From: an uncultured Muribaculaceae bacterium
Lineage (GTDB): Bacteria > Bacillota_I > Bacilli_A > RF39 > UBA660
Length of the DNA: 43,136 bases
Assembly: GCA_964369155.1 (NCBI GenBank)
Contig: CAYJEI010000002.1
Coordinates: 1 to 43,136 of the forward strand
Direction of reading: 5' to 3'
A program made the translations under genes and the position numbers. The notes beneath the pieces are model-generated. The model was not told the DNA's origin. It made no database searches and saw only the letters and a program-made list of their open reading frames with translations. Positions 672-41,947 of the stretch are shown piece after piece; within the stretch, counting starts at the first letter, position 1; each line of letters starts with the position of its first letter.

Positions 672-2288
672 ATGAATATTATATTTAAATATAAAAAACA
701 ATTACTGTTAATTATTGGTGCACTTTTAATTATAACTTTTGGGCTTTCTTATGCATATTTTGGCGATCTAATTGGTCCAGGAGCAACAACTAACGTTAAT
801 ATAGCTTCCGATGAACAAACATCGCTTACCTTTACTAAAGGAGATGATATCAGTTTTAGAGTCAATCCAAACACGCTTCCAGAAGGTGGCAATAATTTAA
901 CATCAAGCACAATTTCTAGTGCAAAACTTATAGCGGGAGATCATGAAACTGGAGCAGTTACTGAAAACTATAATGTATATTTTCAAATTAAAAATAATAC
1001 ATTTATATACACATCACCAACTAATGAAGCCGAAATACTTTTAAGTATAACTGATCCAACAGGAGCAAAAGTAGTGATTAGTGGTTTAACAGAGAAAACT
1101 AGTGGTGGAGTAACTGGTTATGATATAACTACATTTAATGGATTACTACAAATAAAAGAACTTGAAGAAATTACTACAGAAACTACTATTACTGAAGAGT
1201 GGACTGCTACAATTACCTTTGCAAATTTACCAACTGATCAAAAAGATAATATGAGTAAATCATTAGAAGCTACATTTGTTCTACAAAAAGAAGGACTTAC
1301 CAGTGCAGAAATAATACTTGGCCATAATGGTGGTAAAGATTTTATTGAAGCTAAAACAGAGCCGGATTTTACTCAAATAGCTGATACAAACGAAGGAATG
1401 TTTGCAACAACGGATACATATGGAACGGCATACTACTATAGAGGTGCAGTAGATAATAATTGGTTATATTTTAATGGGATATACTGGAGGATAGTAAGCA
1501 TAGCTGGAAATGGTTCAATAAAACTGCTTTATAGCGGAACAACAGCACCAATAGAAAGTGAAGCAGTAGTTATGACTGGCGAAAAAACAACTATTGGAGA
1601 AGAAAAATTTAATACAGATCCACTAGATAATGCCTCTGTAGGTTACATGTACACACTTGGAGAAAGACAAGGATTAAGTGAATCTAGCATAATAAAAACA
1701 ACATTAGAAACTTGGTATACTACTAATATGGGTGAAGTAGATTCTCAAATAGCAGATAATGTATTTTGTTATGATAGAAGTTTGGCACAAGCCGGATTTC
1801 AATCTGCAAATTACGGATCAGAAAATGGTAGTTATACAGGAACCGGAATTGGAACAAGTCTAACACTATATGGAGTAGTAGAAAGAATAACAGCTTCTTC
1901 AAGTGATTTTATCAGAGGTGGAACTGGTCCATCTCTGATGTGTCCAAATAAAAACGATTCATATACTGTTAATGATATTATAAATGGAAATGGATCACTT
2001 TCAAATAAAGTAGGATTACTCACTACTGATGAAGTAGTAATGGCAAGCATAATAAATGGTTACCCGAATACTAGTAATTATTTGTATACAAATGATCGTT
2101 ATTGGTTGGGGTCTCCCTTCGGATTTTCTGCAAGCATGGTAGCTTTTACATGGATAGTGAATGATAGAGATTTGTATATTGAGGTTCCTGCTAGTGGTAA
2201 TATTGGAATTAGACCCGTAATTTATCTATCACCAGAAGTTAACATAACAGGAACTGGTCATTGGAATGATCCATATCAAGTATCTTAA
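672..2288 (+). CDS. Exported/surface protein, paralog family member P1 (TasA/camelysin-like SipW-type leader + conserved C-terminal YYYRG...WRIV...GIRPV...GTGxWNDPY module); function unknown
   Basis: 538-aa ORF with AAGGAG RBS. N-terminal K-rich + hydrophobic segment ends in LSYAYFGD. About 70+% identical by eye to 10489-12108, with the same architecture as 40448-41947 and 19993-21213. Confidence 0.9.
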   Translation: MNIIFKYKKQLLLIIGALLIITFGLSYAYFGDLIGPGATTNVNIASDEQTSLTFTKGDDISFRVNPNTLPEGGNNLTSSTISSAKLIAGDHETGAVTENYNVYFQIKNNTFIYTSPTNEAEILLSITDPTGAKVVISGLTEKTSGGVTGYDITTFNGLLQIKELEEITTETTITEEWTATITFANLPTDQKDNMSKSLEATFVLQKEGLTSAEIILGHNGGKDFIEAKTEPDFTQIADTNEGMFATTDTYGTAYYYRGAVDNNWLYFNGIYWRIVSIAGNGSIKLLYSGTTAPIESEAVVMTGEKTTIGEEKFNTDPLDNASVGYMYTLGERQGLSESSIIKTTLETWYTTNMGEVDSQIADNVFCYDRSLAQAGFQSANYGSENGSYTGTGIGTSLTLYGVVERITASSSDFIRGGTGPSLMCPNKNDSYTVNDIINGNGSLSNKVGLLTTDEVVMASIINGYPNTSNYLYTNDRYWLGSPFGFSASMVAFTWIVNDRDLYIEVPASGNIGIRPVIYLSPEVNITGTGHWNDPYQVS

Positions 2289-2298
2289 AGTAAAATAC

Positions 2299-2326
2299 TT
2301 GATAATTTAATAAAATAATTTATAAT
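2299..2326 (+). promoter_or_regulatory. Candidate sigma-70-type promoter TTGATA-16 nt-TATAAT for the 2401/2980 gene pair
   Basis: TTGATA at 2299-2304 and TATAAT at 2321-2326. The -10 runs into an (AT)8 tract at 2325-2340. Confidence 0.4.
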
Positions 2327-2400
2327 ATATATATATATATGAAAGAGAGGTGTAGCCAGTGTAGTGCTGGTGACTGAAGTTGGAAATAAAAAATAAAAAT

Positions 2401-2979
2401 ATGTTTAAAACTAGAAAAAATTTAATTATACATATAGTAGTATTTATACTTGTTATAATTGGATTTGTTTATTTAGGAACTTTAAATTTTAATGAAAATT
2501 TGGAACAAAATGAAATTTTTATTAGTGAATTTGACAGAGTACCTCTTGAAAACATTTATGAGTATAATAATGCTAGAGAAGTATTAGCTGCTTTAGATGA
2601 TACTGCAGTAATACTTCTTGGTAGTAAACTCAATCCATGGACAGAAGACAGTGCAATACTTTTAAATGAAGTAGCACTTGAAAATGGTATAGACAAAATA
2701 TTGTATTATGATTTTTTTGAAGATAGAAATATAAATAACGGAAATTATGAGCTTTTAGTAGAAAAATTAAGTGATTATTTATATACACTTGATAATGATA
2801 CTCAAGATCTTTTAGCGCCAACAATTATTTTTGTTAAAAATGGTGATATAATTTATTATAATGATGAAACTGGTTATGTTAGAGGTAATATAGAACCAGA
2901 AAAATACTGGACTGAGTCAAAAAAATTAGAATATAAAGCTAATCTATCAGCTGGTATAAAAGCTTACTTGGAGGAATAA
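2401..2979 (+). CDS. Membrane-anchored protein with a possible thioredoxin-like fold lacking the CxxC motif (NPWT in the equivalent position); function unknown
   Basis: The ORF is open from 2374. The ATG at 2401 (MFKTRKNLIIHIVVFILVIIGFVYLG) is preferred over the TTG at 2380 in the track. It has one N-terminal TM segment. The fold assignment is a weak impression only. Confidence 0.65.
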   Translation: MFKTRKNLIIHIVVFILVIIGFVYLGTLNFNENLEQNEIFISEFDRVPLENIYEYNNAREVLAALDDTAVILLGSKLNPWTEDSAILLNEVALENGIDKILYYDFFEDRNINNGNYELLVEKLSDYLYTLDNDTQDLLAPTIIFVKNGDIIYYNDETGYVRGNIEPEKYWTESKKLEYKANLSAGIKAYLEE

Positions 2980-40335: not shown

Positions 40336-40393
40336 TAGTAAGTAATTACTATTACTTTTTTTATGTAAATTATAAGAAATACGCTTTTTATTA

Positions 40394-40422
40394 TTGACTA
40401 GCAAATTTTAAAATGGTATTAT
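40394..40422 (+). promoter_or_regulatory. Promoter TTGACT-17 nt-(TGg)TATTAT for P4
   Basis: TTGACT at 40394-40399, TGGTATTAT at 40414-40422. Confidence 0.6.
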
Positions 40423-40447
40423 TTATATAAAGGATAGGAGAAAAATA

Positions 40448-41947
40448 ATGATAGAAAAAATTAAAGATAGAAAAAAAATATTAATTGTACTTACAGCGCT
40501 TTTACTATTAGTAATAGCAACATCTTTTGCATACTTTTTAGGTGGCGTTGGTCCAGCAGCAAATACGGATGTGGACATAACTTCTGGAACTACTGAAAAG
40601 TTAACATTTATTCCGGGAACAGCATTAGATTTAACAATCAATGAAACTACTTTAGCAGAAGGAGGTTCAAGTTTATCAAGTAGTACAACATCTAGCGCTA
40701 AATTAGTTGCAGGTTCAAAAACTGGAACAGCAGATGAAACATATCAAGTTTATTTTAATATTGCAGATAATACTTTTACATATTCAGTTGATACAAATAC
40801 ACCTGAAATGATAATGAAGGTTACTGATCCTACCGGAACAGAACTTACAAGTATTGATGGGCTTACGTATAAAACAATAGTTGATGCTAGTGGCACAAGT
40901 ATAAGTGGATTTGATGTTACAGTAGCAACTGACTTAATTAAAATTAGAGAAGATTATCCGATAAGTACAACATCTTCTACTGATGGAACAGTGCATGATT
41001 GGGAAGTTGAAATACTATTTGTTAACTTAACTACTAATCAATCAGCTAACGAAAATAAAGTGTTTGACTCAGTTTTAATTTTACAAAAAGAGAAAATGAC
41101 TTCAGGAGACTTATTTTATGAGAAAATACTTCTAGATAATGGTGGTAAAACATATATAGATAGTTTAACATATCCAGCTTTTGACGCAAGTGGAGATGGA
41201 ATATTCGCAACATCAGACTACTCAGGAACTACATATATATTTAGAGGAACTGTAGATAATAATTATGTTTATTTTAATGGCATGTACTGGAAGATTATAC
41301 GAATTGATGGCGAAAACAAAGTAAGGCTATTATATTATGCTACAGAGGGTGATGGTGTAAATACTGGTACAGATAATAATTTAGGTGAAGCATCATATGA
41401 CACTTCTGGAACAAGAGGTCCAATATTCTTGGAAAATTCTACTATTTACCAAAATGAACTTAAGAATTTTTATGATTCTTTAGTTTCGGCAACGTCTAGC
41501 AGTTATTTTACTGATGCTATTTATTGTAAAGAAGATGAATATATTACTGAAGCTAGCGGATCTGATAATATATATATATTTAATCATTTGGCACGCTTTC
41601 AAGCTGGATTAGAACCTAGTTTAATGTGTTCAGAAGGAGTAAACAATAGATACTATAGTTTGTTATCATTAGATGAAGTAAGATATACAGGCATAGAGGA
41701 ATCTAATTATTCTTATTATTTAAACTTCAACTACTTTTCATGGTTAAGCAGTCATGCTAATGATGACACTGAATTCAACTATTCTGAAATTGCTTATATT
41801 TTAAATGGAAACTTAAGTGATGAATATGGATTCAATAGTATGCAGTATGGCCATAGCTTTAATTACAATCCTATAGTTAATATTAATACAAATGTAACTA
41901 CAACAGGAACAGGTACTTGGGAAGATCCGTATCTTTTAATAAATTAA
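40448..41947 (+). CDS. Exported/surface protein, paralog family member P4
   Basis: 499 aa with AGGAG RBS. Leader ends in TSFAYFLG. Shares TLAEGGSSLSSSTTSSAKL, YIFRGTVDNNYVYFNGMYWKIIRIDGENKVRLLY and TTGTGTWEDPYLLIN with P1 and P2. Confidence 0.9.
   Translation: MIEKIKDRKKILIVLTALLLLVIATSFAYFLGGVGPAANTDVDITSGTTEKLTFIPGTALDLTINETTLAEGGSSLSSSTTSSAKLVAGSKTGTADETYQVYFNIADNTFTYSVDTNTPEMIMKVTDPTGTELTSIDGLTYKTIVDASGTSISGFDVTVATDLIKIREDYPISTTSSTDGTVHDWEVEILFVNLTTNQSANENKVFDSVLILQKEKMTSGDLFYEKILLDNGGKTYIDSLTYPAFDASGDGIFATSDYSGTTYIFRGTVDNNYVYFNGMYWKIIRIDGENKVRLLYYATEGDGVNTGTDNNLGEASYDTSGTRGPIFLENSTIYQNELKNFYDSLVSATSSSYFTDAIYCKEDEYITEASGSDNIYIFNHLARFQAGLEPSLMCSEGVNNRYYSLLSLDEVRYTGIEESNYSYYLNFNYFSWLSSHANDDTEFNYSEIAYILNGNLSDEYGFNSMQYGHSFNYNPIVNINTNVTTTGTGTWEDPYLLIN

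Follow-up and report, generated by a model that had tools for sequence, protein, structure and literature searches.

A 43,136-bp stretch of contig CAYJEI010000002.1, deposited under the name of an uncultured Muribaculaceae bacterium, is the window analyzed here at its full length. Its guanine-cytosine (GC) content is ~27%, and nearly all of its genes lie on the plus strand. Dispersed among them are four open reading frames, denoted P1 to P4, whose products carry a hydrophobic N-terminus, an N-terminal domain (the stalk), and a C-terminal module (the head). P1-P4 are probably surface-exposed, variable ligand-binding proteins that act as adhesins or receptors. The strongest clue to function, missed in a preliminary description of the same DNA, is that the head in relatives is the variable-protein head of diversity-generating retroelements (DGRs). 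All four reading frames are confirmed at the coordinates first noted, and an arrow marks the predicted cleavage site where a leader is written out:

672-2288, plus strand: P1, 538 residues (from the open reading frame, its translation, and BLASTP); leader 1-28 (…FGLSYA↓YF), disordered conserved segment 30-46, beta-sandwich 51-205, C-terminal module 211-538
10489-12108, plus strand: P2, 539 residues; leader …FSISYA↓YF
19993-21213, plus strand: P3, 406 residues; divergent subfamily with an immunoglobulin-like N-domain and the C-terminal module from about residue 169
40448-41947, plus strand: P4, 499 residues; leader …VIATSFA↓YF, and NPIV in place of RPV

The longest open reading frame of P3 opens with TTG at 19948, and the ATG at 19993 is the plausible start.

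The four proteins are true paralogs. Among all open reading frames of the window, BLASTP links only P1-P4 to one another, with expect values (E) from 1e-10 to 0, which bears out their first portrayal as dispersed paralogs amid housekeeping genes. P1 and P2 are 68% identical over their full length, P4 is ~34% identical to both over its full length (E 1e-69), and the C-terminal half of P3 shows 25% identity to P1 (E 3e-15), with matches of P3 to P2 and P4 at E ~1e-10. Identity between P1 and P2 is uneven, reaching 97% at residues 226-300 against the overall 68%, which suggests mosaic divergence or gene conversion. The motifs quoted in the preliminary description are all present. These are Y(Y/I)(Y/F)RG at residue 254, 254, 192, and 263 in P1, P2, P3, and P4, respectively; W(R/K)I(V/I)(S/R)I; an LL(T/S)-x-DE region that reads LLTTDE, LITADE, LLTIDE, and LLSLDE; an RPV-type motif that reads GIRPV, LRPI, GIRPV, and NPIV; and a C-terminal tail of the form G-x-G-x-W/I-(N/E/D)-(D/N)-P-Y. 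Each ectodomain has exactly two cysteines, as was claimed (366/424, 366/424, 274/303, and 360/394 in P1-P4), and both are at least 90% conserved among the 74 aligned family members used for conservation counts and Pfam scans. Serine plus threonine make up 24-28% of the N-domain, described at first as Thr/Ser-rich, in P1, P2, and P4, and 16% in P3.

The head spans ~330 residues, and its C-terminal half is assigned to DUF6273 (PF19789, gathering score 23.5 bits). This family is matched by 14 of the 74 homologs at E<=0.01, over their last 90-150 residues, and its gathering score is exceeded by orthologs 52-68% identical to P1. The scores are 26.3 bits for P0008 (52% identical to P1), 25.0 for P0004, 24.8 for P0017, and 30.0 for P0030. 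Foldseek against BFVD, a set of predicted viral structures, finds phage proteins with a best E of 7e-6, including the DUF6273 domain-containing A0A8S5MNV4 (probability 0.99, template-modelling (TM) score on the target 0.55, both for predicted structures). DUF6273 is described as a C-type-lectin-like (C-lectin) domain whose C-terminus, in the receptor-binding proteins of phages, holds a DGR variable repeat (PMC10743442; bioRxiv 2024.10.15.618418), and the head is assigned to the C-lectins because the literature describes DUF6273 so. The module thus appears to be a divergent DUF6273 domain. The lectin-like C-domain first proposed survives in this form, through orthologs and through Foldseek matches to phage models, whereas the other families then named, DUF1566 and Fib_succ_major, match neither P1-P4 nor any of the 74 homologs in Pfam and NCBIfam. 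The most conserved part of the head is its N-terminal half (YYFRGAVxNNW…WRIVRINGDGS), which lies outside the DUF6273 Pfam model. Several charged residues of the head, among them D368, R405, D453, and E454, are at least 90% conserved in the 74 members.

Variation within the head is concentrated at its tip, which has the following positions in the four genes:

2109-2222, plus strand: variable head tip of P1, residues 480-517, a beta-meander just before GIRPV
11926-12042, plus strand: equivalent of P2, residues ~480-518, 23% identical to P1 with insertions and deletions
21022-21141, plus strand: equivalent of P3, residues 344-383
41759-41878, plus strand: equivalent of P4, residues 438-477

In the AlphaFold2 model of P1, the tip is a confident three-strand meander (strands 477-485, 491-496, and 501-506). 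Here P1 and P2 are least alike, and here, too, the entropy of the head peaks across the family.

The same position is targeted by DGRs in relatives. Eighty loci, the best of at least 586 relatives, were retrieved from GTDB genomes, and each was searched for short repeats with mismatches falling on the adenines of one copy. Six independent pairs of template and variable repeats are found (L002/L003, L050, L057, L074, L076, and L079). The repeats measure 101-113 bp, and of the 17-25 mismatches in each pair 85-100% fall on adenines of the downstream (template) copy. In every pair the variable copy is part of the 3' end of a family gene; the template, which is rich in AAY codons, comes 220-330 bp further downstream. 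At five unrelated loci from metagenome-assembled genomes (MAGs), the template is followed by a small open reading frame and then by an RVT_1 reverse transcriptase scoring 45.7-77.9 bits (gathering score 29.6). Four of the five small reading frames have a bAvd-like match, one of them above threshold, and that of L050 has no Pfam match. The complete cassettes, which run in the order target gene with its variable repeat, template, bAvd-like reading frame, and reverse transcriptase, are:

L050:4349-7248
L057:6507-8853
L074:10770-12894
L076:10681-13102
L079:10882-12942

Projected onto P1, every one of the six variable repeats falls on residues 479-518 and ends at the conserved G-x-R-P motif. The position written by DGRs in relatives coincides with the identity minimum of P1 and P2 and with the entropy maximum of the family.

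The sixth pair belongs to homolog P0046 (L002:11322-11756, with the duplicate contig L003:6994-7428) and has 20 mismatches, 85% of them at adenine. No reverse transcriptase lies within 10 kb on either side of its template repeat, implying either a reverse transcriptase that acts in trans or a decayed element. The reverse transcriptase of L076 (L076:11573-13102, 509 residues) has a C-terminal match to MutS domain I (PF01624, 29.1 vs 20.6 bits), which is an unusual fusion.

The family is far larger than the label "lineage-specific", given to it at first, would allow. Among 5.8 billion proteins searched, 379 homologs were retrieved, and an exhaustive hidden Markov model search gives at least 4,690 clusters at 50% identity with E<=1e-30 and 14,975 with E<=1e-3; phage tail versions come in addition. 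Nearly all relatives come from MAGs of uncultured low-GC gut "Bacilli", "Tenericutes", or "Mycoplasma sp. CAG". A genome has several to many copies, and up to five of them stand in tandem. A protein of the P3 ortholog type is found at L024:9381-10607. Displays of the head differ across the family. Homolog P0037 combines this head with a type IV pilin leader (KKGFTLIE), and other members have plain anchors of the "NLAIMIK" and "FTRAKYRTT" types with different stalks. Giant proteins with 8-12 tandem heads also occur, such as P0121 (3528 residues), P0122 (4905 residues), and others.

In IMG/VR, the head module is present in only 5 of 2.9 million viral contigs. In four of these five, predicted phage contigs with a GC content of 28-34%, the head is leaderless. 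Its gene directly follows those for tail and tail fibre (phrog_372, phrog_5073), and a gene for a small holin-like membrane protein comes next; this is the position of a receptor-binding protein:

L085:7500-8930
L087:7500-8954
L088:7446-8945
L084:7674-9737

The N-terminus of these phage-contig proteins is Cna-B-type-like in appearance. A prophage origin of the window copies is unlikely and was rejected, given their housekeeping context, the presence of leaders, and the scarcity of the module among viral contigs.

AlphaFold2 gives P1 a predicted local distance difference test score (pLDDT) of 92 and a predicted TM score of 0.84, and the model of the N-terminal 209 residues has a pLDDT of 89.5. 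A helix at residues 2-30 is followed by a low-confidence stretch at 30-46 (pLDDT <50) and by the beta-sandwich at 51-205. Within the low-confidence stretch lies the segment A-x-T-(N/D)-V-(N/D)-(I/V)-x-S (residues 38-46), which is conserved though unstructured in the monomer model and starts ~10 residues after the predicted cleavage site, close to and just downstream of the position that the donor strand has in TasA. In TasA, the donor strand comprises residues 28-38, right after the cleavage site, and residues 39-47 extend toward the next subunit (PMC9674648). Equating the two is suggestive only.

The relationship of the stalk to TasA is reached through intermediates. With leaders removed, hhalign joins the N-domains of window-type homologs to those of classical TasA-like homologs with a probability of 94.9% (E 4e-8, 148 columns). 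The profile of the classical homologs in turn finds TasA in the PDB (5OF1 and 8AUR, E 3e-5 over ~50 residues) and the archaeal AbpX (E 0.0075). Peptidase_M73 (PF12389) is matched by 8 of the 74 homologs, on the leader and first strands; P0046, P0051, and P0054 score 30.8-38.2 bits against a gathering score of 22.5 and cover profile positions 3-79 of 196. Membership of the N-domain in the TasA superfamily is thus suggested by a two-step chain of profiles rather than by a direct match. Foldseek against the PDB also lists generic sandwiches (CBM3) and the donor-strand pilin FimA (probability 0.93-0.94), all at E>1e-3, and matches above this value were not used as positive evidence.

The leaders resemble that of TasA more directly. 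S-Y-A↓Y-F in P1 and P2 and S-F-A↓Y-F in P4 match the TasA SipW site T-W-A↓A-F at P3, P2, P1, and P2', in line with the resemblance noted in the preliminary description. TasA is cut by SipW at TWA↓AF, and an aromatic residue at P2' hinders or blocks cleavage by the ordinary LepB-type peptidase (PMC10269814). In most family members, the hydrophobic segment closes with (G/S)-x-(S/T)-(Y/F)-A-(Y/F/W)-F, 13-18 residues past its start. A strict regular expression, in which the Ala is fixed by the design of the search, finds the motif in 49 of 90 complete members, and near-variants occur in many others. In the alignment of N-domains, Ala28 is the sole invariant residue besides Met1. The P3 protein has the hydrophobic N-terminus …VFIIYYIYLE and lacks the S-Y-A-Y-F motif. 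Genes for archaeal/ER-type peptidases (TIGR02228, cut-off 51.85) occur in relatives, with 88.2 bits at L016:2218-2856 and 77.8 bits at L080:33-461. In L080, sipW, a gene for a 439-residue membrane protein, and a family member follow one another within 3.4 kb (L080:33-3419), a layout that resembles tapA-sipW-tasA. At both L080 and L016 (225-2856), the peptidase genes adjoin proteins that end in a TasA-like sandwich, one of which, of 659 residues, is full of D-x-D-G-D calcium-binding-like repeats. The type IV pilin site G↓F-T-L-x-E (PF07963, N_methyl) is absent from P1-P4. A type IV pilin identity was rejected because archaeal pilins are matched in the PDB only below threshold and only along the hydrophobic helix, and because this site is missing as well.

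Like TasA of B. subtilis and the camelysin CalY of B. cereus, the window proteins have a leader ending in a small residue, an aromatic residue, Ala at the cleavage site, any residue, and Phe. They also share with these proteins a beta-sandwich whose terminal strand reads "…Q…G K x F … (I/V) x (I/V)", are linked to them at the profile level by way of intermediate homologs, and have ER-type peptidase genes in relatives. Unlike them, they miss Peptidase_M73 and TIGR04088 and match the solved TasA fold weakly; TasA itself has no C-terminal head, and the window has no tapA-sipW-tasA operon. TvpA of Treponema denticola and LdtA of Legionella are surface DGR proteins with a C-terminal lectin-fold tip diversified at adenine-templated positions, and are lipoproteins or Tat (twin-arginine translocation) substrates with FGE/DUF1566-type domains. 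The present family differs in using a TasA-type leader and stalk with DUF6273. Mycoplasma-related bacteria have multigene families of variable surface proteins. By analogy only, P1-P4 resemble these in being scattered surface paralogs in a genome that is small and low in GC, and in diverging mostly where they are exposed, but no lipobox, phase-variation repeats, or invertible promoters are seen here.

The closest counterparts of the head are the DUF6273 "tentaclins" of gut phages, Mtd-like DGR targets (PMC10743442; bioRxiv 2024.10.15.618418). Shared features are the C-terminal "…(Y/W)W…SP…G(I/L/V)RP(V/A)", a variable repeat at the C-terminal end of the domain, the C-lectin-like head, the structural match, and the presence of phage-tail versions in the family. 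The heads described here differ in spanning ~330 residues with the extra conserved N-terminal part, in being carried by cellular leader-bearing proteins, and, in the window copies, in having no DGR. The IgA protease of Thomasclavelia ramosa (PMC12402451) is likewise a secreted multidomain surface protein of a gut Firmicute with a DUF6273 domain of ~290 residues at one end; its DUF6273 is fused to an M64 peptidase and is sortase-anchored, and the likeness is by description only.

These observations fit a scheme in which P1-P4 would be exported through Sec by means of a basic N-terminus and a hydrophobic segment of ~17 residues ending in (S/T)-(Y/F)-A↓(Y/F)-F. A SipW-like enzyme encoded outside the window would cleave after Ala28; P3, having no such motif, probably remains anchored. 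A TasA-superfamily beta-sandwich of ~175 residues, preceded by the conserved strand-like segment at residues 38-46, would serve as the stalk. The head, probably held by the single disulfide C366-C424, would bind ligand through the beta-meander at P1 residues 480-517, right before the invariant RP(V) motif, as the specificity-determining surface. In relatives this tip is the variable repeat of DGRs, and here the repertoire would consist of four diverged paralogs. What stays constant would be the ligand-binding head and its diversifiable tip, and what varies would be the mode of display, here a TasA-type leader and sandwich. Paralogy, architecture, family size, the targeting of relatives by DGRs, the use of the head in phage tail loci, and the SipW-type genes of relatives are observed; we infer cleavage, surface retention, and the nature of the ligand, which is probably a glycan or surface structure of the host, of food, or of other microbes.

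Several results weigh against this reading. None of P1-P4 matches DUF6273 or Peptidase_M73 even at E<=1, or, in their four 70-residue N-termini, the SipW-cognate signal TIGR04088 at E<=10. With the last model, B. subtilis TasA as a positive control scores 38 bits and the leader of homolog P0046 scores 17, below the cut-off of 19. A PDB search with the profile of the full-length family finds no relative of known structure, and the direct mixed N-domain profile does not find TasA among PDB sequences. The top 50 PDB Foldseek matches of the full-length P1 model include no C-type lectin. Neither the full-length nor the N-domain model has a PDB match at E<=1e-3, and the TasA fibre 8AUR is matched weakly (E 1.2e-2, probability 0.6-0.89, TM score 0.31-0.33). 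The TasA-like N-domain proposed at the outset has the support of the profile chain, and not of a family match or a strong fold match. In general, the preliminary description is largely right, its inference of exported or surface proteins included, but it was built on resemblances that direct model searches do not confirm. The remaining adverse results concern the leader and the absence of DGR signs in the window, and they bear on the alternatives as well.

The main alternative holds that the hydrophobic helix stays in the membrane as an uncleaved type II signal-anchor, so that P1-P4 would be monomeric tethered receptors or lectins with no SipW and no polymerization. AlphaFold2 draws residues 2-30/33 as one unbroken helix that runs through the leader motif, which an uncleaved anchor fits too. 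No signal peptidase is found in the 43-kb window, TIGR04088 is unmatched, and a sipW gene is near only 2 of the 84 loci examined. P3 and many other members carry plain anchors lacking the motif. The paralogs have no wall-anchoring signal. Once cleaved, a monomer would have to be retained in some other way, whereas an anchor would account for retention. However, the predicted P1 position is always Ala, S/T and Phe occupy P3 and P2', all at a fixed distance from the start of the hydrophobic segment across very diverged members, and a plain anchor is disfavored because such conservation is hard to explain for an anchor alone. The motif moreover copies the TasA SipW site, and SipW-type genes adjoin relatives. 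The chances that a SipW-like peptidase cleaves these leaders are about even, and the signal-anchor as a whole is a serious possibility, if a rather doubtful one. A TasA-type fibre goes beyond cleavage. Residues 29-46 would enter the sandwich of the next subunit as a donor strand, independently of sortase or chaperone, each subunit would carry a lectin head, and paralogs could co-polymerize. It draws on the link of the N-domain to the TasA superfamily, the conserved segment at the donor-strand position, the L080 arrangement, and the head on a type IV pilin leader in P0037. The PDB folds of highest probability are also donor-strand pilins (FimA, 0.93-0.94) and the TasA fibre (0.89). Yet the fold similarity is weak (TM ~0.3), the TasA C-terminus contributes to the inter-subunit interface where here it bears a 330-residue domain, and most family genes are solitary with no nearby accessory genes. 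Such a fibre is unlikely. Still less expected is a surface fibre of an undescribed kind, combining SipW cleavage, donor-strand polymerization without sortase or chaperone-usher, a C-lectin head on each subunit, and a tip diversified by DGRs in some species and by mixing of paralogs in this one, which would make a hypervariable "Velcro" for uncultured gut Bacilli of reduced genome.

It is very improbable that DGRs still act on the window paralogs, with a template repeat and reverse transcriptase located in another part of the genome diversifying them in trans. Relatives are targeted at exactly the P1-equivalent tip, trans action appears to exist in the family because the L002 template has no reverse transcriptase within 10 kb, and the GC content of the P1 and P2 tips, 0.39-0.40, is slightly above the gene mean of 0.33. 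Against this, the 43 kb contain no adenine-biased repeat pair, reverse transcriptase, or bAvd, P1 and P2 differ at the tip by substitutions of every type without adenine bias and by insertions and deletions, and the window genes lack the GC-rich conserved 3' end common to real DGR variable repeats. DGR activity on the window copies was judged unlikely on these grounds, and the repertoire there would consist of fixed paralogs rather than live hypermutation. A secreted enzyme or toxin, with the head catalytic through D368, R405, D453, and E454, has the least to recommend it and would be a considerable surprise. The strong conservation of these charged residues and the occurrence of DUF6273 as the N-terminal domain of a secreted IgA protease (PMC12402451) are compatible with it. 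However, Pfam, NCBIfam, PDB sequences, and Foldseek yield no enzyme family. The module serves DGRs and phage tail loci as a variable binding surface, and catalysis in the IgA protease resides in the separate M64 domain (PMC12402451).

Variable ligand-binding surface proteins of this kind would unite components already known separately, namely TasA-like SipW substrates, DUF6273 C-lectin heads, and DGR targeting of DUF6273. In the searchable literature, neither the joining of the three in so large a cellular family from uncultured gut Bacilli nor the conserved N-terminal half of the head is described. TasA, SipW, or camelysin is not brought together with DGR or DUF6273 in any paper there, nor is RF39 with SipW. 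Most members of the family come from uncultured gut Bacilli allied to the mycoplasmas, a group whose surfaces have hardly been studied. The link to DGRs and phage receptor binding gives it a testable function, programmable ligand binding, and a specificity loop at P1 residues 480-517. If true, the fusion to a TasA-type leader and stalk would carry SipW-dependent export, and perhaps donor-strand fibres, well past the biofilm matrix proteins of Bacillus, and suggests a route of adhesin display for organisms poor in sortase substrates. For annotation, the N-terminal half of the head lies outside every Pfam model.

The signals around the four genes are as follows:

657-663, plus strand: ribosome-binding site of P1, AAAGGAG, read from the sequence
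10475-10480, plus strand: ribosome-binding site of P2, AAGGAG
12143-12173, plus strand: terminator-like hairpin and T-run after P2 (RNAfold of 12106-12226)
19934-19952: terminator-like hairpin of dnaJ, directly upstream of the promoter-like site of P3
19958-19986, plus strand: promoter-like TTGACT-17-TATACT of P3, ending 6 nt before the P3 ATG
40394-40422, plus strand: promoter-like TTGACT-17-(TG)TATTAT upstream of P4
40436-40440, plus strand: ribosome-binding site of P4, AGGAG

Ribosome-binding sites were first reported for P1, P2, and P4 and not for P3, and indeed no Shine-Dalgarno sequence is found upstream of the ATG at 19993. A promoter-like site so near the start codon and no ribosome-binding site suggest a possible leaderless mRNA for P3. 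Terminators had been assigned to all four genes; the hairpin is convincing only after P2, P3 and P4 are followed by weak, AT-rich ones, and P1 has none that is evident. The promoter reported for P4 is present as a sequence, but counts of promoter-like and terminator matches are about the same as in shuffled sequence. Such scans are uninformative here because counts in AT-rich DNA match those of shuffles.

The neighbors are housekeeping genes: HU, frr, fmt, a pgsA-like gene, an M23 peptidase, hrcA-grpE-ORF-dnaK-pepF-dnaJ, a MiaB-like gene, DtxR, sufC/D, recD2, cmk, a XerC-like recombinase, DUF2130, ppdK, nusB, xseA, proS, and a GT2 glycosyltransferase. The small membrane-protein genes flanking P1-P4 have no relation to one another by BLASTP among the window reading frames, and the window therefore has no conserved accessory gene. 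These single-pass membrane reading frames without matches lie at 2380-2979, 2980-3732, 9749-10420, 21306-21794, and 39799-40335. The heat-shock operon is interrupted by a 169-residue reading frame without family match between grpE and dnaK (14679-15188), and pepF (oligoendopeptidase F) stands between dnaK and dnaJ (17039-18820). A Lys/Asn/Glu-rich reading frame of 499 residues without Pfam match lies between frr and fmt (4319-5818). Positions 3-127 hold the 3' end of a truncated gene whose Pro/Gln-rich tail has the repeat (A/V)PIVQPEPV(M/I)Q. The GC content of P1 and P2 is 0.33, against ~0.27 for the window and 0.26 for P3.

The closest relatives (L004-L008, L010, L014, L017, L042, L054, L055, and L077) are deposited as "uncultured Muribaculaceae bacterium", and the order DtxR-SufC-SufD in L001 is the same as in the window. 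The gene content of the relatives, the synteny of L001, and the low-GC Firmicute-like proteins fit Mycoplasma-related Bacilli, and the Muribaculaceae labels are probably wrong.

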